32,000 bases of DNA from Patescibacteria group bacterium (GCA_041662745.1 JBAZRV010000003.1:108051-140050); one strand, 5' to 3'. Shown: positions 22,716 through 32,000, counted from the first letter of the stretch. Program-made: numbers and translations. Notes: generated by a model not told the origin, from the sequence alone.

Positions 22716-22774
22716 GAGTTTCCTCCTTTGTTTTGTTGGTAAAAAATTGTTAATGAGCAGTATTTATTGTCAGT

Positions 22775-22803
22775 ATCTTAATAAAGTAGTAGTTTTTTGT
22801 CAA
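22775..22803 (-). promoter_or_regulatory. sigma70-like promoter of the 22715-22037 gene pair
   Basis: Minus strand TTGACA (22803-22798), 17 nt spacer, TAAGAT (22780-22775). Confidence 0.5.
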
Positions 22804-22867
22804 TAGTTCTAACATCCACGTTACGGTATCAAAAAACACCCCGATGATGGGGCGTTTTTCATGAACT

Positions 22868-22986
22868 GGGTGTTTATGAACAAATCCGAACCGAATTTCA
22901 ACAAAATTCATGATCGGTCGGGCGGAATTCCCCCCCAAACCCCTCCTTCCGCCCGACCGAAACATCTGGACGGCTGAGGCGGAATT
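22868..22986 (+). repeat. repeat X (left end of the element), 119 bp, perfect inverted partner at 25752-25870
   Basis: Base-by-base comparison of 22868-22986 with the reverse complement of 25752-25870 gives 119/119 identical. It contains a 14-bp-stem hairpin tcggtcgggcggaa/ttccgcccgaccga (22914-22927/22947-22960). Confidence 0.95.
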
Positions 22987-23029
22987 GCAATTTCCAATTT
23001 TTCTTTGGCGGCGGAATTTTTAATTAGTA

Positions 23030-23596
23030 TTATATACAAATTATACTTTTGAGATAAGTGAATATCACACTATGGGCGTATAAAAATAATAAAAAAGCTA
23101 ACAATATTAATACGATTGAAATCACCCGCATTTTAGAATAATCTACTAGTAAAAATTTTGGCACCTCATAAGTATTATTATCTATACAGTGATCATATAT
23201 TTTCAAAATATTATTTTTATTAATTACTTTTTTATCATTCTTGTCTATTGGATAAATCTGTCGATTATCAATTTTTATAATCGACATGGAATAAGTGTCC
23301 GTTTCTAATATACTATTAAAATATATATAAGTTTCGATTTTTCTTCCGCGATATATTCCGGATATAATATTCGACGCAGACTCACCAATAGGATTAATCT
23401 CTCTGAAATACTGAAATTTTAAATTATGCTTTTTTGCCCATATTCTTTCTTCGATACTTTTTAAAAAGCGGTAAAGGTACCATAAAAATACAAGGATAGA
23501 CAAAGACAACACTAAAGACGCGATAGCCAGAACTGGCTCACGTACATCAGAATCTAATGTTTTTGTAAAATAACAAACTAGTGGCGTAATTGACAT
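23030..23596 (-). CDS. membrane protein with N- and C-terminal TM segments (188 aa), AT-rich cargo
   Basis: ORF with hydrophobic segments at both ends. It lies 4 nt from the upstream gene's stop. No family recognised. Confidence 0.55.
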   Translation of the reverse strand: MSITPLVCYFTKTLDSDVREPVLAIASLVLSLSILVFLWYLYRFLKSIEERIWAKKHNLKFQYFREINPIGESASNIISGIYRGRKIETYIYFNSILETDTYSMSIIKIDNRQIYPIDKNDKKVINKNNILKIYDHCIDNNTYEVPKFLLVDYSKMRVISIVLILLAFLLFLYAHSVIFTYLKSIICI

Positions 23597-23599
23597 AAT

Positions 23600-24511
23600 T
23601 TAATTTAGATGTAGCCCAAAATTTGCCCCAAGACTAATGCATTCATCTTTTGCTTCTTGAGTTTTTGCCTTATTGCATTGACTTAAATCAGAATTATAGT
23701 GCTTCATAATCACCCAAAGGTAACACAATCCAGCCTTGCTTTGTAGCTTAACGTAATCACACATTGAGAGATCGCTAATATTTCCATTAGTTGCTCGGTT
23801 GACGATGCAATAATCTCTGTAGCCATCTGGTATATCAAGGCAATTTATTGGATTGTCATTCATTATGCCAGCGGAAGAAACAATCATATTATAACAATCT
23901 CCAATATTAGACTTATTACTAATTTTAGAGCAAAGAGAAAAATTACTATCTAGGTTATTACTAATAACCCAGCCATAACAATCACCAGAATTATATTTAG
24001 TGTCTGGCCCACCGTGAGTCGTTACCCCGCCTTGGATTTTATCGCAGTAACTTATTTTATCAGCATCTAAAACCCCACTACTAGCGTTTGTCATAATTGT
24101 TTGCTGACAATTCAAATCACAATTATTTTCAGTTTGCCAATAAGTGCATTTTCCTGAACAGCAGTTACACTGTTCGCTATATAACGATTGCATTTTTTGT
24201 CCTTGACAGTACATATATTTAAAGCAGCATTCGCCATTTTGATCGCCACAACCTTTATTTAAATCACCTAATAAGGCCACTGGTTTTGTAATTGGATTTG
24301 CAGTAGAATTCGGAGTAGCCACAACCGTCTTTGGTGTAGCACTTGGTGCTTTGGTAACTACTTGATTCTGTGCGGGAGCAGTTTGAGCGGCACCCTGCTC
24401 TTTTACTGGTTCTGGCTGTGCCTGATTTTGTTCAACTTTGGAAGCTCCAAGAGAGCACCCAGTCAGCAATATGGCGAGGCCAAGGGCTGAAAACACTAAA
24501 AGTTTTTTCAT
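23600..24511 (-). CDS. secreted Cys-rich repeat lipoprotein (303 aa)
   Basis: Lipobox MKKLLVFSALGLAILLTGC, then a Pro/Gln/Ala/Thr linker, then a Cys-dense module (CGDQNGECCFKYMYC..CNCCSGKC). These are followed by about 5 repeats of the pattern C-x8-12-(D)CY-x2-V/I-x8-12. Confidence 0.7.
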   Translation of the reverse strand: MKKLLVFSALGLAILLTGCSLGASKVEQNQAQPEPVKEQGAAQTAPAQNQVVTKAPSATPKTVVATPNSTANPITKPVALLGDLNKGCGDQNGECCFKYMYCQGQKMQSLYSEQCNCCSGKCTYWQTENNCDLNCQQTIMTNASSGVLDADKISYCDKIQGGVTTHGGPDTKYNSGDCYGWVISNNLDSNFSLCSKISNKSNIGDCYNMIVSSAGIMNDNPINCLDIPDGYRDYCIVNRATNGNISDLSMCDYVKLQSKAGLCYLWVIMKHYNSDLSQCNKAKTQEAKDECISLGANFGLHLN

Positions 24512-24534
24512 AATTTTTAATTTTTATTCTAAAT

Positions 24535-25335
24535 TTACGTTGTCATTTTCAACTCAAACTCTTTGAGTTTTTCAGAGTCATATTTATCATTAATGCGAGT
24601 CAGAATATCAAATATTCCTTTCCATAAACAAATACTAAACATCAATGGATAAAGAAAAATGAATAATGTTTGATATTCATAGCCAATATAGGCACGCAAG
24701 AATATGAATATTATCGCGGCTGGAAATATGGCAAACATAGCAGAAAAAGCAGACATCATAATAACTAATATTCTAACGAGCGCTGGATTGATCTGGTTCA
24801 ATACGATATTAAATAAATATTCTTCTTGGTTCTTGATTAAGTTTGATGACAAAAAAGCTTTAACCTTTTTCATAACACCTGACTGCATGGATTTAACCGT
24901 CAAATAGCCTTCTTGAATTGCAAAATAAATTAAATTTCCAAAAACTATATATGGACTTTTTAACGGATAATGTAAAATAACTCCACTAATAGAATAATGC
25001 TGGCCACTAGATATTGCAACAATAATAAAATAAGCGAATAGAGTGATGCCACCCACAAGAAGAATTGTGACTGGAGCGTAAATAAAAACTTCTCCCCATC
25101 TAAAATAAAATATTTTAAATAAACAATAAATAGCTAAAATCACCGTCTCAAATAAATAAACAAAAAACAAAGTATAAAAATCGTAGTAATTAAAAATTAC
25201 TCCCAAAAACGGTATAAAATTATAAGTCAATATATAAAAAGATTTGAGCGAAAAAAAGTCCTTAACAAATCGGCTAAACCCCATTTTGAGTAATGGCCAA
25301 AATTCTGAAGACTTTATGGCTGGTGGGTGATACAT
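24535..25335 (-). CDS. polytopic membrane protein (266 aa), AT-rich cargo
   Basis: About 7 hydrophobic segments rich in Phe/Ile/Tyr. No family recognised. Confidence 0.6.
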   Translation of the reverse strand: MYHPPAIKSSEFWPLLKMGFSRFVKDFFSLKSFYILTYNFIPFLGVIFNYYDFYTLFFVYLFETVILAIYCLFKIFYFRWGEVFIYAPVTILLVGGITLFAYFIIVAISSGQHYSISGVILHYPLKSPYIVFGNLIYFAIQEGYLTVKSMQSGVMKKVKAFLSSNLIKNQEEYLFNIVLNQINPALVRILVIMMSAFSAMFAIFPAAIIFIFLRAYIGYEYQTLFIFLYPLMFSICLWKGIFDILTRINDKYDSEKLKEFELKMTT

Positions 25336-25386
25336 AAGTAGTAAATTGTTTATATTATAGCAAAAACTACATTCAAAAACAATAAA

Positions 25387-25593
25387 CTATTTTAGCAGTT
25401 CCCACGCTTCTACTCCTAAAGCATGAGCTAATTTGTTTAAATTTTCAAGCGTAGGATTAATATGTCCGCTTTCTACTCGACAGATATACGCACGGTCAAT
25501 TTTACTGGAACGAAAAACATCGCCTTGAGTCAGGCCTTTATCTTCCCTTATCTTCTTAAAATTATACGCTAATTTTTTACTTAATTTATGCAT
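25387..25593 (-). CDS. XRE/Cro-type helix-turn-helix transcriptional regulator (68 aa)
   Basis: IREDKGLTQGDVFRSSKIDRAYICRVESGHINPTLENLNKLAHALGV is a classic HTH_3 pattern. Start set at ATG 25593 because the track start is a TTG. Confidence 0.85.
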   Translation of the reverse strand: MHKLSKKLAYNFKKIREDKGLTQGDVFRSSKIDRAYICRVESGHINPTLENLNKLAHALGVEAWELLK

Positions 25594-25674
25594 AGTTATC
25601 CACAGGTATTTTACCAATTATTGTATATTTAAACAATATTGCTGTATACTACAATATAGATGCTTGATTTAGCA

Positions 25675-25701
25675 TTAAGAAAAAGAAAAAGTTTGATTTT
25701 G
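25675..25701 (+). repeat. repeat W (20 bp perfect core at 25679-25698), inverted partner at 25967-25993
   Basis: gaaaaagaaaaagtttgatt at 25679-25698 equals the reverse complement of 25970-25989. One copy lies upstream of the XRE gene and the other 17 nt upstream of the recombinase ATG. Confidence 0.85.
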
Positions 25702-25703
25702 TC

Positions 25704-25733
25704 CAAAATAAAGTTCGAGCCGATTTTTTTAAT
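25704..25733 (-). repeat. repeat Z' (30 bp), perfect inverted copy of recombinase coding sequence 27333-27362
   Basis: The reverse complement of 25704-25733 is attaaaaaaatcggctcgaactttattttg, identical to 27333-27362. Confidence 0.9.
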
Positions 25734-25751
25734 CTGGTTCTTTGGCGGTTT

Positions 25752-25870
25752 AATTCCGCCTCAGCCGTCCAGATGTTTCGGTCGGGCGGAAGGAGGGGTT
25801 TGGGGGGGAATTCCGCCCGACCGATCATGAATTTTGTTGAAATTCGGTTCGGATTTGTTCATAAACACCC
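25752..25870 (-). repeat. repeat X' (inverted copy of X)
   Basis: See X: 119/119 identity in inverted orientation. Confidence 0.95.
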
Positions 25871-25944
25871 AGCCAGTTCAATTTTTTCGAATTCAAAACC
25901 GAATTCCAACCGTTTTTTGGCTTAAATTCAAATTTTTTACCTTG
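25871..25944 (-). repeat. repeat Y' (74 bp), inverted copy of the recombinase 3' coding end 27363-27436
   Basis: 73/74 identical. The single difference (27368 C versus T) is a synonymous GGC/GGT change in the recombinase reading frame. Confidence 0.9.
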
Positions 25945-25966
25945 GTTCCGATTACTATCGGAACGC

Positions 25967-25993
25967 CAGAATCAAACTTTTTCTTTTTCTTTA
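25967..25993 (-). repeat. repeat W' (inverted copy of W) immediately upstream of the recombinase gene
   Basis: See W. It is preceded by a perfect palindrome gttccgat-tact-atcggaac (25945-25964). Confidence 0.85.
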
Positions 25994-26006
25994 ATTCAAT
26001 CTAATT

Positions 26007-27452
26007 ATGAAATACTTTCTTTACGCCCGCAAGTCAACAGACGAAGAGGAGCGTCAAGTCCTTTCTATTGAAGCCCAGCTCGCAGAGCTGATGGAGTTAG
26101 CCACCAAAGAAAAATTGGAAATTGCGGACTCGCTCTGCGAGTCCAAAACCGCCAAAGAACCAGGCCGAAAAATTTTTGGCGAAATGCTCTCTCGGATTGA
26201 AAAAGGTGAAGCCGACGGAATTTTAGCGTGGCACCCTGATCGATTGGCCAGAAATAGCGTGGACGGCGGTAAAATCATCTACATGGTGGATATCGGCCAG
26301 ATCAAAACGCTAAAATTCCCGACTTTTTGGTTTGAGAATACTCCGCAAGGGAAATTCATGCTCAATATCGCTTTCGGTCAGAGCAAATACTATGTTGATA
26401 ATTTAAGCGAAAATGTAAAACGCGGTTTCAGGCAAAAGCTAAGGCGCGGCGAATATCCTAACAAAGCGCCAATCGGTTATCTTAACGACCGTACAGCCAA
26501 AACCGTGCTTATTGATCCTCTACGCGCCAAGCTGATAATAAAAATGTTTGAAATGTATAACACAGGAGAATTTTCGCTTAAATTTCTTAAAGATAAGTTT
26601 TGCGATATCGGCTTGACCAGCAAGCGAGGCAAAATCCTGACTGTCGGCATGATTTCCAATATATTGAGCAATCCCTTTTATTGCGGAGTATTCAGGTTTA
26701 ATGGCGAAAAGTATCAAGGCAAATACGAGCCAATTATTTCCAAAAAGCTTTTTGATGAAGTTCAGGCGGTAATGAAAGATCGAGGCCGGCCATTAGGGCA
26801 AGATAAACACGACTTCGCCTTTACCGGACTGATGAAATGCAAATGTGGCGCCTGCATTACCGCCGAACGGCAAAAAGGCCATATCTATTATCGCTGTACG
26901 AAGAAAATGGGAATCTGCGACGAAAAATATATTCGCGAGGAAAACTTGCTGGAGCAATTCCATGGCCTTTTTCAAAAAGCTGTTTTGCCTGATGACTGGA
27001 TTCGTAATATGCTCGCCAAACTCGGCGAAGAAGAGAAAAGCGCTATCAAATCATCTTCTAGTCTGATTGATGAGGTAAAAACGCAAATAACGGTCACTGA
27101 AGGCAAGCTGGACAAGCTACTTGATGACCGATTAGAGGGTTTACTCGACAAGGACGACTATTTGCGCAAGAAAGAACAACTCATCAATCAGAAAATTGAT
27201 TTGGAGGACAAAATCCAGTCAATCAGGCAAACAGGAAATAATTGGCTCGAACCGATGAGAGAATTCCTTTTCGCCAATAAACAAACCAAAAAAGTCGCCA
27301 ACGACGGCGACCTTTTGGAAATCCGAGCATTTATTAAAAAAATCGGCTCGAACTTTATTTTGCAAGGCAAAAAATTTGAATTTAAGCCAAAAAACGGTTG
27401 GAATTCGGTTTTGAATTCGAAAAAATTGAACTGGCTGACTGACTCGGTCTAG
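26007..27452 (+). CDS. large serine recombinase (481 aa)
   Basis: Resolvase catalytic N-terminus MKYFLYARKSTDEEERQ..SIEAQ (nucleophile Ser in YARKST) and GILAWHPDRLARN. It also has a recombinase domain, a zinc ribbon (CKCGACITAE...YYRCTKK..C) and a coiled-coil tail. No SD or obvious promoter upstream. Confidence 0.9.
   Translation: MKYFLYARKSTDEEERQVLSIEAQLAELMELATKEKLEIADSLCESKTAKEPGRKIFGEMLSRIEKGEADGILAWHPDRLARNSVDGGKIIYMVDIGQIKTLKFPTFWFENTPQGKFMLNIAFGQSKYYVDNLSENVKRGFRQKLRRGEYPNKAPIGYLNDRTAKTVLIDPLRAKLIIKMFEMYNTGEFSLKFLKDKFCDIGLTSKRGKILTVGMISNILSNPFYCGVFRFNGEKYQGKYEPIISKKLFDEVQAVMKDRGRPLGQDKHDFAFTGLMKCKCGACITAERQKGHIYYRCTKKMGICDEKYIREENLLEQFHGLFQKAVLPDDWIRNMLAKLGEEEKSAIKSSSSLIDEVKTQITVTEGKLDKLLDDRLEGLLDKDDYLRKKEQLINQKIDLEDKIQSIRQTGNNWLEPMREFLFANKQTKKVANDGDLLEIRAFIKKIGSNFILQGKKFEFKPKNGWNSVLNSKKLNWLTDSV
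27333..27436 (+). repeat. repeats Z (27333-27362) and Y (27363-27436) inside the recombinase 3' end
   Basis: The partners of Z' and Y' described above. Y ends in the core TGAACTGGCT. Confidence 0.9.
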
Positions 27453-27733
27453 AACCGATCCATATCAAGTATTATAAGGGCTTTTCGAAAATATTTCCAG
27501 AGGCGATTTGAGGCGTCTCGGTCGGGGTAAAATATACTATGAAATGCGACAAATGCGACAGTACTTTGGAACTGTCTAAATATAGAATTTTGAGCAACAA
27601 AATGAGACAAATGAGACACAAAATGAGGTTTTCATAATGTAATATAAAAGTGTAATTTGTATCTAATTTTAGATTAAAAAAGAGCGAGACACACCTAAAA
27701 ATAACTGTCTCACTTTGTATAAAATTTTTGTGC

Positions 27734-27762
27734 TTGACAAACCTCTCAAAATAATATATAAT
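27734..27762 (+). promoter_or_regulatory. consensus sigma70 promoter of the radical SAM operon
   Basis: TTGACA (27734-27739), 17 nt spacer, TATAAT (27757-27762). Confidence 0.65.
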
Positions 27763-27855
27763 ATCATGTTAGTCAAAATGGCTAATTACTAAGAGGTACA
27801 TTAACATTTTACGGTATTTAACCAATCAACCCAACCCCAAACAAGGAGGAAATCC

Positions 27856-28968
27856 ATGAGTACTACGAACATGAGTTTTGCTATCAGACCGACAGACCGC
27901 TGTAACCTGAATTGTGACTATTGCTACGCCAGAGTCGCCGATCCAAAAGACATGAGTCCGGAGACACTGAGGTTGGTTTTGCAACGGATCGCCGATAGCT
28001 ATCCGGGGCATGTTACAATTAGTTGGACTGGCGGAGAACCGCTGCTGATGGGTCCCGATTTTTTTCAACGAATCGCCGAGATTCAGGCAGAGTTGCCGCA
28101 GGTGCAGTTTACCAATATTCTGCAAACCAATTTGACATTACTTCAGGATTGGGTCATCACTTTTTTGTCTGCTCACAATTGGCAGGTGCGCACCAGTCTC
28201 GATCTTCCGCCTGCCAATCATGACGAGCTGAGGATCAAAGGAAATTTCAATGCGACGATGATGCGCATACGGCGCCTACAAGAAGCCGGCGTGCCGGTCA
28301 ATATCAATACCGTCATAACGTCGAAAAACGTCGGATCAGCACCGGAGATATACTGGTTTCTTAATAACAACAGAATCAACAGTTTCTCTGTTTCGCGATT
28401 CATCTTGCAGGGTAACGGGGTGCAAAATGCCCATCTGGCAATTAAGGAGTCGACTCGTTTCGGCCGTTTCTTGATTGAATTGTTTGATCTTTGGATGGCC
28501 GATACCAGCGAAACGAAAATACGGAAAATCACGCCACTCAATACATTGATGGAAGCCTGCGAGTATTACATGCGCGGGAAAGTAAATCCGGAAGCGTGTT
28601 TCCATTGTCAAAATCAGGTTTACGCAATCGGACCGACTGGTGACATTTATCCGTCTTGCAACAAGTTTTTTGGCTTGCCCGGCACTTGCCTGGGCAACAT
28701 CTCTGAACTGGAGCTGGCGGACGTCACTGATTCTCCTGAACGCGTTGACTTTCTGGAACAGGTCAAGAAAGTTGGCGAGAAGGTTTGCATCGGCTGTCAG
28801 TACATGCCGATCTGCCGCGGTGGCTGTTACTATGTCGCTTTTGCCACTCTACCTGAATTGGACAAGATTACGAAACGTGACCAATTCTGCAAGGGATACT
28901 ATTTGGTGTTTGATCATATCATCGATTATCTGCAGAAAATGCGTCGAACAGAGGAGGCAATCCAATGA
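27856..28968 (+). CDS. radical SAM/SPASM-domain enzyme (370 aa), anSME-like architecture without an N-terminal RRE
   Basis: CNLNCDYC at residues 16-23, GGEPLL, and C-terminal auxiliary-cluster Cys motifs (CFHCQN..., CIGCQYMPICRGGCYY, FCKGYY). AGGAGG SD present. Confidence 0.85.
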   Translation: MSTTNMSFAIRPTDRCNLNCDYCYARVADPKDMSPETLRLVLQRIADSYPGHVTISWTGGEPLLMGPDFFQRIAEIQAELPQVQFTNILQTNLTLLQDWVITFLSAHNWQVRTSLDLPPANHDELRIKGNFNATMMRIRRLQEAGVPVNINTVITSKNVGSAPEIYWFLNNNRINSFSVSRFILQGNGVQNAHLAIKESTRFGRFLIELFDLWMADTSETKIRKITPLNTLMEACEYYMRGKVNPEACFHCQNQVYAIGPTGDIYPSCNKFFGLPGTCLGNISELELADVTDSPERVDFLEQVKKVGEKVCIGCQYMPICRGGCYYVAFATLPELDKITKRDQFCKGYYLVFDHIIDYLQKMRRTEEAIQ

Positions 28969-29978
28969 CTGCGATAACGACCATACCAGTGTTAAGATCG
29001 CTGAAGTTCGCGGTCGGCTATGACTGCAATATGCATTGCGGTTTCTGCCTTCAGCAAATGAGCGACCGAAAACCGATTCTGCCATTCGAGCTGGCTCATA
29101 AAATCCTGACGGAAGAAATGGTGGCTCGGGACGTACGACTTATTACTTTGACTGGCGGTGAACCGACCTTCGGCCCCTATCGTGAATTATCACTTAAGAT
29201 CATCAGGCTTGCCACGAGTCTGGGCATGGAGACGTCGATCTTCACTAATGGTGTTTTGCTTGATGATGCGACTCTCGATGAATTCAAGGTAGCCGGTCTG
29301 AGCCGTTTCCGGGTTAGTTTGTATGATCCGATTGATTGGACTGACGTCAGGAAACTGATCGCCGGATTGCGCCGGCGTGACTGGCCGACGATGTTCAAAT
29401 ACACAGTAACGAAAGAGAACTATCCGCTATTGGATTCTGTTCTCAAAATGTTGCCGGAAGCTGACATAGATTGGTTCCAGATTAAGCCGTACAATCGCTT
29501 GGAGATTGAACAGATCGACCAGCAGTACGAGCTTGAACCCAAGCAGGTACTGGCGATGGCCAAAACTTTGCTCGGTTTCCGCAGGAACTTTCCAGCGATC
29601 AAAGTTGATCTTCTGCCGCTCTGCTATGAATTCCTGGTGGATGACAGTTTGACTACCGATAACCTGAGTCTCTGCCACTGCGGCAAGGGTTCTCGCGGTT
29701 ACATGGTCATTGATCCCGAGGGCGAGGTTCGTATCTGCGGCGCTTATCCTGATCCGATCGGCAACGCCAATACCGACACCATCGCTGATTTGTGGATTAA
29801 CCATCCGCTATTAGCGCAAGTCAGGAATCTGGCAAATAGGCCGAGGCCAATCGAATGCCAGGACTGTAGCCATTGGGAAAAATGTGCTGCAACGGACTGC
29901 CATAGTGCGACCTTTGCCAAGTTCGGCAATTTCAATCATGGTAATCCGCAATGTCCGCTTATAGCCGGACGACAATAA
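28965..29978 (+). CDS. second radical SAM/SPASM(twitch)-domain enzyme (337 aa)
   Basis: CNMHCGFC, TGGEPTF and C-terminal CHCGKG...ICG, CQDCSHWEKCAATDCH. ATGA overlap with the upstream gene and a GAGGAGG SD. Confidence 0.85.
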   Translation: MTAITTIPVLRSLKFAVGYDCNMHCGFCLQQMSDRKPILPFELAHKILTEEMVARDVRLITLTGGEPTFGPYRELSLKIIRLATSLGMETSIFTNGVLLDDATLDEFKVAGLSRFRVSLYDPIDWTDVRKLIAGLRRRDWPTMFKYTVTKENYPLLDSVLKMLPEADIDWFQIKPYNRLEIEQIDQQYELEPKQVLAMAKTLLGFRRNFPAIKVDLLPLCYEFLVDDSLTTDNLSLCHCGKGSRGYMVIDPEGEVRICGAYPDPIGNANTDTIADLWINHPLLAQVRNLANRPRPIECQDCSHWEKCAATDCHSATFAKFGNFNHGNPQCPLIAGRQ

Positions 29979-29999
29979 CGTCAATAAACGTACATGATA

Positions 30000-30037
30000 C
30001 GCCGAGAACAAGGAAGTTCTCGGCGTGTTTTTATTTT
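30000..30037 (+). terminator. rho-independent terminator of the radical SAM operon
   Basis: cgccgagaac-aaggaa-gttctcggcg followed by a T-rich tract (tgtttttatttt). Confidence 0.7.
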
Positions 30038-30116
30038 GTCAAAATTATAGTTTCCAACAGCTTATCAACTCAGGCCCCCTGGACTCCCTAGCGGGGTTGC
30101 GTCATTCATTAGTTAT

Positions 30117-31430
30117 ATGAATGAAACAACAGCGCCTGTGGGGGCTACGGGCACGATAATAGCCCCGCCAAAGGTCAAGTACTGCCTTTATGCAAGGAAA
30201 TCAACTGAGTCAGAGGAGCGGCAGATCCTATCCATAGACAGCCAGATCAAGGAGATGCTCTTATTGGCAGAAAAGGAGGGTTTAGATGTCGTAACCATGA
30301 AGCGTGAATCGCACTCAGCTAAGGAAACCGGCCAGCGACCAGTTTTTAATGAGATTATTGAGGAGATTAAGTCAGGTCAGTACAATGGGATTCTGACTTG
30401 GGCGCCAGATCGCATTAGCAGGAATGCCGGTGACTTGGGTAAAATCGTAGATTTGATGGATTCCGGGCTATTAAAAGACATCCGGACTTACGGCCAGAGA
30501 TTCGGCAATAATCCTAATGAGAAATTCTTACTGATGATCTTGGGATCTCAGGCTAAGCTGGAAAATGACAATAAAGCGGTCAATGTTAAAAGAGGACTAC
30601 GAAGCCGGTGTGCCATGGGTTGGAGGCCGGGCCAGGCGCCAACCGGTTACCTTAATGAAAAACATGTCGACAAAAAATGCCAATGCCGGTTAGATCCCAA
30701 AAGAGCGCCGATTATCAAACAGATGTTTGAAAAAGTCGCTAATGAGGGCTGGAGTGGCCGAAAAGTCTACCGCTGGCTTAAAGACATTGATTTTAAGACT
30801 AAAAACGGCAAGCACCTGGTGCTTGCCAATATCTATATTCTTCTTAGAAATCCATTCTATTATGGCGAGTTCGAATATCCAGTCAAAAGTGGCGTTTGGT
30901 ATACCGGCAAACATACGCCGATTATTACTAGGGAGATTTACGATAAGGTTCAGCTATTGCTGAGCGACCGCTATGTATCCAGAACGGAAAGCAAGGAATT
31001 CGCTTTCACCAAATTGTTCAAATGCGGCTATTGCGGATCGGGCATCTCGGCCGATGAGAAATTTAAGAAACTAAAAGATGGCGGCACCAACCGCCATGTC
31101 TATTACTTTTGCACCAAAGCGAGGGATATTGATTGCAAAAATCAGCCGATCAATGAAACCGATTTGATCAGCGAGCTGAACCGCTTAATGGACAAGATTG
31201 ATCTGGATGAGCTTGGCGTCAAGAAAAAATTAGAGGATGAAATGAGAAGGTATAACCGATTCAATGTCGGAGTGCTAGGCAAAAAGCAAAAGGAATTCAA
31301 TCAAGATGTGGATATTAGAAATTATGCAAAATACCTGCTTAGAGATGGCACTATTTTGGAAAAGAGAGAATTATTGGGTTGCCTGAAAAGTAAGGCGATA
31401 TTGAAGGATAGGAAAATTATTTTGGAGTAG
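30117..31430 (+). CDS. large serine recombinase, paralog of 26007-27452 (437 aa)
   Basis: KYCLYARKSTESEERQILSIDSQ, GILTWAPDRISRN and the zinc ribbon CGYCGSG...YYFCTK..C. The N-terminal roughly 170 residues align with the first recombinase with many identities (by eye). Confidence 0.9.
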   Translation: MNETTAPVGATGTIIAPPKVKYCLYARKSTESEERQILSIDSQIKEMLLLAEKEGLDVVTMKRESHSAKETGQRPVFNEIIEEIKSGQYNGILTWAPDRISRNAGDLGKIVDLMDSGLLKDIRTYGQRFGNNPNEKFLLMILGSQAKLENDNKAVNVKRGLRSRCAMGWRPGQAPTGYLNEKHVDKKCQCRLDPKRAPIIKQMFEKVANEGWSGRKVYRWLKDIDFKTKNGKHLVLANIYILLRNPFYYGEFEYPVKSGVWYTGKHTPIITREIYDKVQLLLSDRYVSRTESKEFAFTKLFKCGYCGSGISADEKFKKLKDGGTNRHVYYFCTKARDIDCKNQPINETDLISELNRLMDKIDLDELGVKKKLEDEMRRYNRFNVGVLGKKQKEFNQDVDIRNYAKYLLRDGTILEKRELLGCLKSKAILKDRKIILE

Positions 31431-31483
31431 AAAAGTAATCAAAAATAATGCCTTCATAAAACTGTGGCATTTAGCTAATAATT

Positions 31484-31768
31484 TTACATTACACCCTCAG
31501 GACAATCAGTAATTATTTTTGTTGCTCGTTGTTTTCTATCCATCTCCTCTGCCTGTAAAGCCGAATTCAAATCGGCCAAATCATCAACTATTTTTGTTGC
31601 ATCTTTATAAACATTTTTTGCTTCATCATTCATTTTTGAAAGACTTATTTTAGGATCAAGCAATTTATGAACAAATCTATTTCTAATATTTTTATTAAAT
31701 TTTTTAAGATTTGCAATTAACTCCTTATCTTCGCAGTATTTATCTAGTTCAAAAATTAAATTTCCCAA
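31484..31768 (-). CDS. hypothetical helical protein with an RxxxxH (HEPN-like) motif; possibly 5'-truncated
   Basis: IRNRFVHKL fits Rx4H. The frame is open upstream to a TAA at about 31850 but contains no ATG, and the track start is a TTG. Confidence 0.3.
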   Translation of the reverse strand: MGNLIFELDKYCEDKELIANLKKFNKNIRNRFVHKLLDPKISLSKMNDEAKNVYKDATKIVDDLADLNSALQAEEMDRKQRATKIITDCPEGVM

Positions 31769-31955
31769 AGTATATTTTGAATATTTTTCTTCACTGGGGT
31801 CAATATAAAGAATTGTGTCAAATTTACTAAGTGTTAGACTTCCTGAAATTAAAAATTGATAAGTAACGATTGTTGAGACTGTAAAATATTATGTGTAAAT
31901 GGTATCTTGGGATGTAGGACGATTGGCGTCCTGCCTAACCCAAGATCCTATGCCT

Positions 31956-31990
31956 AAAACAAAAAGAAGGCCGGCTGTCGATGAGCCGGC
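31956..31990 (-). terminator. rho-independent terminator for a minus-strand gene lying beyond the right edge
   Basis: gccggct/agccggc stem (31970-31976/31984-31990) followed on the minus strand by CTTCTTTTTGTTTT. Confidence 0.5.
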
Positions 31991-32000
31991 GAATGAGTTG

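Follow-up and report, generated by a model that had tools for sequence, protein, structure and literature searches.

An internal inverted attP-type joint in a serine recombinase island of Patescibacteria and in a family of related islands at tRNA genes

Introduction

Large serine recombinases (LSRs) of the phage type, among them those of Bxb1, phiC31 and the A118/LI integrase class, unite Resolvase, Recombinase and zinc-ribbon domains in this order and act on short, asymmetric attP and attB sites with an exchange core of 2-3 nt, attP being arranged as a dyad. Serine integrases rank among the main tools of genome engineering, and the elements that carry them in nature have been thought simple, with attP on the circle and attL and attR in the chromosome. 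Here we analyse a stretch of 32,000 nt from a Patescibacteria group bacterium (GCA_041662745.1, JBAZRV010000003.1:108051-140050), referred to as the window, in which an integrated LSR island at 22866-27437 carries, between its left and right junctions with the host DNA (A and C), an inverted attP-type joint (B). The island represents a widespread family, present in hundreds of species representatives that are mostly Patescibacteria, which departs from the simple picture given above.

Further described systems are relevant for comparison. Elements of the TnpX/TndX type insert at many sites, have a GA core and are excised without a cofactor. In the filamentous phage CTX-phi, two inverted att-like sequences pair within single-stranded DNA and so form a duplex attachment site, and the integrated form retains an unused copy. 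The yeast 2-micron plasmid is split into two arcs by long identical inverted repeats, each with its own site for the Flp recombinase. In the eukaryotic element DIRS-1, an internal complementary region (ICR), which is complementary to both termini side by side, acts on a linear single-stranded DNA intermediate and is essential to make the circle junction, after which a site-specific recombinase integrates the circle (PMC7192593).

The island and its three junctions

The region was read directly and scanned computationally for repeats. It is near certain that 22866-27437 is an integrated island of about 4.57 kb, and that this island is a member of a large family of minimal integrative islands, of which the typical member, with the same degree of certainty, consists of an LSR, usually a small helix-turn-helix (HTH) regulator, and variable cargo that often includes restriction-modification genes. 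The left end of the island, X (22866-22986, + strand), corresponds to the P' arm of attP, starts with the T-arm-like motif AAATCCGAACC and has the same arm as counterpart in 29 related loci. It recurs as the inverted copy X' (25752-25872, - strand; 121 nt, 100% complementary), which forms the left half of B. The right end, Y (27363-27437, + strand), comprises the P arm of attP and the C-terminus of the recombinase, and recurs as Y' (25870-25944, - strand; 75 nt, 99%), the right half of B. X' and Y' share 3 nt at 25870-25872 (CTG/CAG).

Junction A reads GGGGCGTTTTTCATGAA-CTG-GGTGTTTATGAAC and junction C reads CGAAAAAATTGAACTGG-CTG-ACTGACTCGG, while the reverse complement of B reads CGAAAAAATTGAACTGG-CTG-GGTGTTTATGAAC (with a longer left stretch, AAAAATTGAACTGG-CTG-GGTGTTTATGAAC). 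A preliminary description of this DNA had proposed that B equals the left part of C joined to the right part of A, and direct reading of the junctions bears this out: B is exactly Y-CTG-X, a joint of the circle type. C is identical to B through the second CTG of TGAACTGGCTGG and A is identical to B from the same CTG on, so that the exchange must fall inside this CTG, located at 22866-22868 in A (+ strand; the attL exchange window, as given by the junction register and the arm ends), at 25870-25872 in B and at 27435-27437 in C (the attR exchange window). The core is therefore this 3-nt CTG instead of the 8-nt TGAACTGG first put forward, which at A is composed of host TGAA, CTG and the G of X, and which is shifted by 4 nt relative to the register of B and C. 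The empty site originally predicted was 4 nt too long; our prediction is TTTTTCATGAA-CTG-ACTGACTCGG, one CTGG shorter, with the full string TTTTTCATGAACTGACTGACTCGG.

The imperfect dyad previously noticed in B was confirmed (25836-25856 against 25890-25910, 81% complementary), and its centre, at about 25873, falls 1-2 nt from the CTG overlap, making B a precise attP-type joint with the dyad centred on the exchange point. Likewise, A and C behave as attL and attR of an integrated LSR element that has the recombinase gene at its right end, as had been supposed. An internal block of this kind could in principle be an assembly artefact, a suspicion voiced in the preliminary description, and many contigs of relatives do break at the repeats. 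An independent assembly from a different sample (ENA ERZ27249449, our locus L003), however, is 100% identical over window positions 22758-32000 and reproduces A, B and C, and the layout recurs in dozens of unrelated metagenome-assembled genomes (MAGs), among them a 771-kb contig, and in a complete genome, which refutes this explanation and leaves it a negligible probability.

The recombinase gene (26007-27452, + strand) encodes 481 aa in an open reading frame (ORF) that crosses Y and the exchange point and continues through 15 nt of host DNA, including the stop codon. Its product shows the order PF00239 Resolvase (3e-19), PF07508 Recombinase (4e-14) and PF13408 Zn_ribbon_recom (1e-6), as in the phage-type LSRs, and has the YxRxS catalytic-serine motif near residue 10 (Y6, R8, K9 and S10 invariant in 30 sequences). 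Its homologues number in the thousands, and a solved structure was matched by sequence for the catalytic domain only (3g13, E = 3e-8). The 3-nt overlap with hybrid attL and attR also agrees with the very short core of attP x attB recombination. An affiliation with the TnpX/TndX type, suggested at first, was not upheld: the recombinase gene at one end of a small element and the presumed movement as a circle are shared traits, but the core is CTG in the window and follows the tRNA 3' end in relatives, the family is tRNA-specific and the arms are unlike, as in phage-type attP x attB, and neither low specificity nor a GA core was found.

A family of islands at tRNA genes

Following a profile search with one genome per species, 80 loci were kept for scripted analysis; 573 of the 599 candidate stretches from the one-genome-per-species contigs encode a relative of the recombinase. 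The hosts are mostly Patescibacteria, some MAGs being labelled as other phyla. The coexistence of attL, attR and an inverted attP was initially regarded as an oddity of one molecule, which it is not. Among the 53 loci with enough flank to be informative, 46 harbor an inverted copy of the recombinase 3' end (of at least 40 nt) upstream of the gene, including the 771-kb contig (L018) and the complete genome (L031) mentioned above. These copies are situated 24-391 nt before the recombinase start codon, and 28 of them are 100% identical to their partner. All three junctions are present in 29 loci, A consisting of host, core and X, B of Y, core and X, and C of Y, core and tRNA; the core overlap amounts to 3-9 nt in 27 of these and equals the tRNA 3' terminus, negative values being obtained for L005 and L053. 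Across the family, the Y arm measures 68-159 nt and the X arm 70-334 nt, far more than the roughly 25 bp of a serine-integrase half-site, and the distance from attL to B varies from 0.76 to 8.5 kb.

In 57 loci the recombinase 3' end is abutted by an opposite-strand tRNA gene (Gln, Ser, Asn, Trp, Arg, Leu, Glu, Pro, Tyr, Gly or Ala), and the specificity of the family for tRNA 3' ends is secure. In the closest relatives of the window island (L001, L002 and L004, which come from other samples and share about 92% DNA identity with it), X'-CAGCCAG-Y' precedes the recombinase gene, whose 3' end contains Y, and the right flank is the 3' end of an opposite-strand tRNA-Gln(CTG), to which the island supplies the terminal CAGCCA. 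In close relatives the recombinase ORF ends inside the antisense tRNA-Gln, giving 495 aa, and the family consensus C-terminus (...NW....DSN) is an antisense reading of the tRNA T-arm. The X arms begin with AAATCCGAAC-like motifs, which are T-arm-like and lie a few bases further from the core, an offset that fits the known recognition of attP and attB by the zinc-ribbon domain. As judged by eye in the 29 loci, the attP motif of the islands is about 5 nt further from the centre than the attB motif; the attP motif of the LI integrase is reportedly offset by about 5 nt relative to attB as well.

Within L001, Y and Y' are identical to each other and both differ from the Y of the window at 4 positions. 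B is securely a conserved and concertedly evolving part of the family design: it is near certain that each intact member retains such a copy of its joined ends directly in front of the recombinase gene, with arms kept identical to the ends themselves. Full-text searches of the literature retrieved no account of Patescibacteria islands in which a serine recombinase targets tRNA genes, and none of an attP kept inverted inside its element; the family is apparently undescribed. It represents a source of many new integrases for which attP and attB are readable from genomes.

The family differs from phage-type LSRs in its targeting of tRNA 3' ends, which is the usual habit of tyrosine integrases, and in keeping an intact inverted attP with very long arms. 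It also differs in having no recognisable directionality factor: none was recognised in the cargo of the window or in the scanned cargo of relatives, such factors being too diverse to exclude one. The Islander-type tRNA islands share with this family the insertion at tRNA 3' ends, the restoration of the gene end and the small size with defence cargo (PMC4383910); they use tyrosine integrases, whereas the islands reported here have a serine integrase, an identity block of only 3-9 nt instead of tens of nt, and an internal inverted joint.

Short inverted copies and hairpins

The inventory of repeats in the preliminary description was incomplete, since it missed four short inverted copies of segments of the recombinase gene or its leader, which abut X and B. 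F1 (22987-23012, + strand; 26 nt, 96%) abuts X and is an inverted copy of n1b (26100-26125; recombinase codons about 32-40). S1 (25677-25701, + strand; 25 nt, 96%) is the corresponding copy of A0 (25967-25991, + strand), a leader segment located 16-40 nt upstream of the recombinase start codon, and S2 (25704-25733, + strand; 30 nt, 100%) that of P1 (27333-27362, + strand), the gene segment just 5' of Y, which according to the protein alignment encodes an invariant GSNF motif. Finally, S3 (25734-25751, + strand; 18 nt, 100%) abuts X' and is an inverted copy of t3 (26146-26163; the TAKEP codons plus the first base of a G codon). Direct reading also revealed two perfect palindromes: g (GTTCCGAT-tact-ATCGGAAC, 25945-25964), located between Y' and A0, and hp (GGACTCGC-tct-GCGAGTCC, 26126-26144), which adjoins n1b and t3 within the coding stretch 26100-26163 (+ strand). 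In the window, the gaps in the series S1, S2, S3 and X' are 5 nt (2 nt with the 25-nt S1 arm), 0 nt and 0 nt, followed by the 3-nt overlap of X' and Y'.

About 20 loci of one subfamily, to which the window belongs, share the order S1-S2-S3-X'-Y', the pieces lying a few nt apart and being 95-100% identical to their partners. S1, S2 and S3 are spaced by 0-9 nt in all but one of 22 loci (the exception being L063, with 25 nt between S1 and S2), and X' follows S3 after 0-7 nt, save for three loci in which 24-38 nt intervene. In 21 of 30 loci, the window included, X is followed by an inverted copy of codons about 30-40, the gene-side boundary of which lies mostly at +115 to +119. These short pieces co-vary with their partners, as a 20-nt t3 copy tracks the synonymous changes of the gene copy in L018, L030, L061, L069 and L082. 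The hp palindrome, in recombinase codons 40-46, has a stem of 5-8 bp that varies in sequence while perfect pairing is kept in 22 of 24 loci; the compensatory changes alter the peptide (SLCEA, SFEEA, SFQEA), and a constraint on the nucleic acid thus appears to override the coding sequence at this point. One of the co-varying clamp sequences constrains the coding sequence of the recombinase itself. At the position of g, about half of the subfamily loci have a hairpin of differing sequence.

On one strand, X:X', F1:n1b, hp and t3:S3 would form a first four-way junction, and S2:P1, Y:Y', g and A0:S1 would form a second one. In a single strand paired in this manner, B is the continuous strand and both island ends meet on it at the core. 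When a condensed single strand was folded with DNA parameters, it adopted X:X' (118 bp) and Y':Y (74 bp) stacked on B, plus hp and g; the helices of the short helper pieces cross the long stems, and a nested fold cannot show them. A0 and n1b were also seen to be able to pair with each other around the start codon over 15 bp (CTTTTTCTTT with AAAGAAAAAG), as a result of which S1 resembles n1b and F1 resembles A0; this may be a low-complexity coincidence or an alternative pairing.

The latter observation bears on an explanation at the RNA level, in which the recombinase mRNA would pair through its long 5' leader with its own start region, codons 46-52 and 3' end, and translation or stability would be controlled in this way. 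All partners except X and F1 do lie in one predicted transcript, and the A0/n1b pairing around the start codon would suit such a role. The mismatches in decayed arms, however, show no significant G:U bias (59 against 39) and include 59 transversions, which makes selection on RNA pairing unlikely, and the control arm X behaves alike. Moreover, X and F1 are placed beyond an antisense cargo operon and the pairings cross one another, and we consider a role in RNA very improbable.

Possible function of the internal joint

We tentatively favour the reading that B is an internal complementary region which acts on single-stranded DNA, like the ICR of DIRS-1, by splinting the island ends and rebuilding attP. 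This reading is suggested by arms that are several times longer than recombinase sites and contiguous exactly at the exchange point, by short clamps and covarying hairpins that complete two junctions, and by pairing that looks DNA-like and not RNA-like. It is also suggested by the lack of excision or transfer genes in the islands, by hosts that take up DNA as single strands, Patescibacteria having been shown to undergo natural transformation with uptake via ComEC (PMC10633639), and by the precedent of the DIRS-1 ICR (PMC7192593). As in DIRS-1, the window and its family possess an internal block that is complementary to both termini, which are adjacent in the block. DIRS-1 is nonetheless eukaryotic, encodes a reverse transcriptase and a tyrosine recombinase and has an ICR of 88 nt, whereas the islands have a bacterial host, a serine enzyme and a block of 200-450 nt. 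No replication, transfer, phage, excision or reverse-transcriptase function was found in the cargo of the window or in 20 scanned cargo proteins of relatives, and the island is ICR-like at most and no DIRS member. The anatomy, its conservation across the family, the co-variation and the tRNA targeting are shown by the sequences, whereas a single-stranded intermediate, its trimming and ligation and the route of transfer are inferred.

The proposed course of events would start with the exposure of one island strand, be it by uptake in natural transformation, by conjugative transfer or as lagging-strand template, upon which X would pair with X' and Y with Y'. The contiguous X' and Y' would lay both island ends side by side on B at the exchange point, with the host flanks as flaps. 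Either trimming of the flaps and ligation, or copying, would lead to a closed circle with a perfect attP, for which neither excision from the donor nor a directionality factor would be needed; following second-strand synthesis, the LSR would integrate the circle into a tRNA-type attB. In the subfamily with short copies, the pairs F1:n1b, S3:t3, S2:P1 and S1:A0 would, with the local hairpins hp and g, fix the inner stem ends as the two four-way junctions described above. A related arrangement is that of CTX-phi, which is, however, a filamentous phage that depends on the XerCD of its host, exchanges one strand pair and has short imperfect arms, while the islands have long perfect arms and an enzyme that cuts both strands.

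That an island with a built-in splint and clamp helices would re-establish itself in this way from chromosomal DNA taken up or moved as a single strand is possible, though doubtful. With the same reserve, such an island might dispense with excision, directionality factor and transfer genes, and would then be a prokaryotic counterpart of the DIRS ICR that is free of reverse transcriptase, and a new transfer route in Patescibacteria. The mechanism has a substantial chance of being new to prokaryotes. If the splint is real, it would amount to an independent invention of the DIRS ICR principle and would explain the spread of defence systems by minimal islands among competent, streamlined bacteria.

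Several points weigh against the ICR-like function. Serine recombinases need duplex sites, and a step of second-strand synthesis therefore has to be assumed. A duplex circle has two equal attP sites, from which near-equal gene orders would be expected, while 57 loci have the tRNA after the recombinase gene and 3 have it before, so that selection after integration must be postulated. Taken together, the helper pairings form a pseudoknot for which closure by helix lengths is barely satisfied, and in L048 it fails. Ordinary gene conversion can keep long inverted repeats identical with no pairing function, and the hp and g palindromes could be protein-binding sites instead of hairpins. Furthermore, no single-stranded or circular form was observed: pattern searches returned no match either for the empty site (in JGI metagenomes, with a pattern covering both of its versions) or for the joint specific to a circle or tandem (a pattern of the Y end, X and F1), although the collection searched may lack the organism.

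The main rival holds that B is a second functional attP. The excised circle would then contain two inverted attP sites separating a cargo arc from a recombinase arc, and could integrate through either; in the chromosome, the orientation of the recombinase segment or of the cargo could be reversed, either through the LSR or through homologous recombination between the 75-330-nt arms, which would change the promoters that read the recombinase gene, for instance by read-through from the tRNA gene. B indeed has the same dyad and T-arm-like motifs as a joint made by recombination, and natural isomers exist: in L072, a tRNA-Gln gene (+ strand) joined to Y' precedes an LSR segment that shares 94.5% identity with its counterpart in L051, a locus of the usual order, and L023 is related to L021 in the same manner (91% identity). 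L007 resembles an older case of an inverted segment. Such isomers are rare, though (the 3 loci against 57 given above), all subfamily-I loci checked agree in the orientation of the cargo and in the position of their helper pieces, which speaks against free switching, and arm lengths beyond a recombinase site, perfect arm identity and the four helper pairs are left unexplained. No serine integrase is known to recombine attP with attL or attR, which also counts against this rival. Frequent inversion was rejected on the same counts, and the islands do not resemble invertible segments of the Hin/Gin/Cin type, having a recombinase of the large type and one orientation in 57 of 60 loci. The 2-micron plasmid, whose two-arc layout comes closest to the circle envisaged, is a replicating plasmid whose copies are amplified by means of inversion, whereas the islands are integrated and without replication genes. 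Overall, a second attP or inversion device appears unlikely, and the operator, relic and RNA roles are less likely than that; were it true, it would constitute a new regulatory layout for serine integrases.

Three loci, L059 (10001-11350), L043 (1123-2481) and L039 (10001-11275), are without B and without the first 28-35 recombinase codons, starting at residue 29-36, at n1b. They look like deletion products of a cargo-inverted isomer. In L059 a direct t3 copy is found 1.8 kb upstream, and a deletion between direct n1b repeats in the cargo-inverted isomer would leave exactly that structure, a resemblance that favours the second-attP explanation.

The same three loci bear on the view that B and the short pieces are the functionless relic of a head-to-head or nested pair of elements that was whittled down, with identity maintained by gene conversion or template switching. 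By reasoning, three deletions could turn two laps of a minimal recombinase circle into the reverse complement of B with its neighbours (Y-X-t3-P1-A0), and arm-to-arm conversion is well known for long palindromes. Some loci, in addition, have decayed X arms (92-94%) beside perfect Y arms. A link between arm decay and a broken recombinase gene was considered and dismissed: loci with decayed arms keep full-length genes and no clear link emerged. A relic would hardly be expected to persist across proteins that are only 47-60% identical, in several phyla and in streamlined genomes; the loci without B include the three with a truncated recombinase gene; and conversion is inefficient for pieces of 16-30 nt, which nevertheless co-vary. 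This explanation is held to be quite improbable.

In nearly all loci B precedes the start codon by 60-330 nt, a position compatible with a regulatory site, at which the LSR would bind an attP copy in its own leader, flanked by a promoter near 25628-25655 and by the start codon, and repress its gene or be titrated, so that the integrated island is kept quiet. Resolvase genes are classically autoregulated via res, and a pair of promoter-like sites is located just upstream of B, in the form of overlapping divergent hexamers with a weak consensus match in a palindromic stretch (25620-25655). The promoter prediction is, however, no better than chance (2 sites versus 2.1 expected), a site of 50 bp would suffice, and neither the exact identity over 200-450 nt, nor the co-varying helper pieces, nor F1 at the far end of the cargo is explained by an operator, which we judge improbable.

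Insertion site and flanks

In the window, the left flank consists of a G+C hairpin between an A-run and a T-run just outside the insertion point (22839-22859; stem 22839-22852 followed by the T-run), which is terminator-like on both strands. The right flank (27438-27465, + strand) resembles an antisense tRNA acceptor and T-arm (GACTCGG-TCTAGAA-CCGATC) when aligned to the tRNA-Gln junctions of L001 and L032, with no tRNA gene; no tRNA or Rfam family was found at this junction, T-arm likeness being all that was recorded. Insertion in a tRNA gene with restoration of its 3' end was thus seen in the relatives and not in the window. Given a T-arm-like right flank with no tRNA, and a terminator-like left flank, the window copy is, to judge by its flanks, in a secondary site, a T-arm-like pseudo-site beside a terminator. 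A genuine tRNA-Gln(TTG) gene is present in the window at 1159-1230 (- strand) and is unoccupied, and the close relatives use tRNA-Gln(CTG).

Contigs of other samples that contain the flanking genes were all occupied, with no empty site among them, and other samples with the cargo genes had repeat-broken contigs only. Inversion isomers have identical junction sequences, and short search patterns cannot detect them. The repeats of the family systematically break short-read assemblies next to tRNA genes, which explains the frequent assembly breaks beside these genes in island hosts. In many contigs of relatives (L001, L002, L004, L008, L013, L014, L021, L032, L035 and others), the sequence begins 200-320 nt before the recombinase gene, and the cargo-only contig L099 ends at most 2 nt from the inner (X/F1) edge of X. 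At the left end of L005 (151-326; a 93% relative), a degenerate Y-like piece (47 nt, 91%) is found beside X (93%), forming an attP-like joint in direct orientation, a sign that a tandem or remnant element may lie to its left.

Cargo genes

The DNA between A and the recombinase gene has a GC content of 30-35%, compared with 43-50% for most of the window. Three cargo ORFs of 188, 303 and 266 aa (23030-25335, - strand; GC 0.30-0.35) gave no family match in domain scans. The first gene of the cargo operon, which adjoins B, encodes an XRE-type HTH protein of 68 aa (25387-25593, - strand) that in domain and homology searches resembles the controller (C) proteins of restriction-modification systems. 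In at least 16 of 30 loci, the B-proximal cargo end is occupied by a homologous HTH ORF of about 70 aa, which with one exception is encoded on the minus strand. A scan of 20 cargo proteins from relatives identified restriction systems (Type I, IIG, III, Mrr and GmrSD), methylases and various other enzymes. A phage origin was rejected, as just 2 close relatives occur in viral contigs and the cargo is without phage, replication or transfer genes.

Neighbouring genes

No inverted repeat resembling B was found at a second large serine recombinase gene of the window (30117-31430, + strand; 437 aa), which is followed by low-GC DNA up to position 32000. Its product is 39% identical to the first recombinase over 340 aa and belongs to a different family; the gene and the low-GC DNA are probably the start of another, different element. 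Between the two recombinase genes lie two adjacent radical-SAM/SPASM genes (27856-28968 and 28965-29978), preceded by short odd repeats (aaatgcgac / aaatgagac) at 27540-27630, and the stretch 27540-29978 may represent a peptide-modification cluster.

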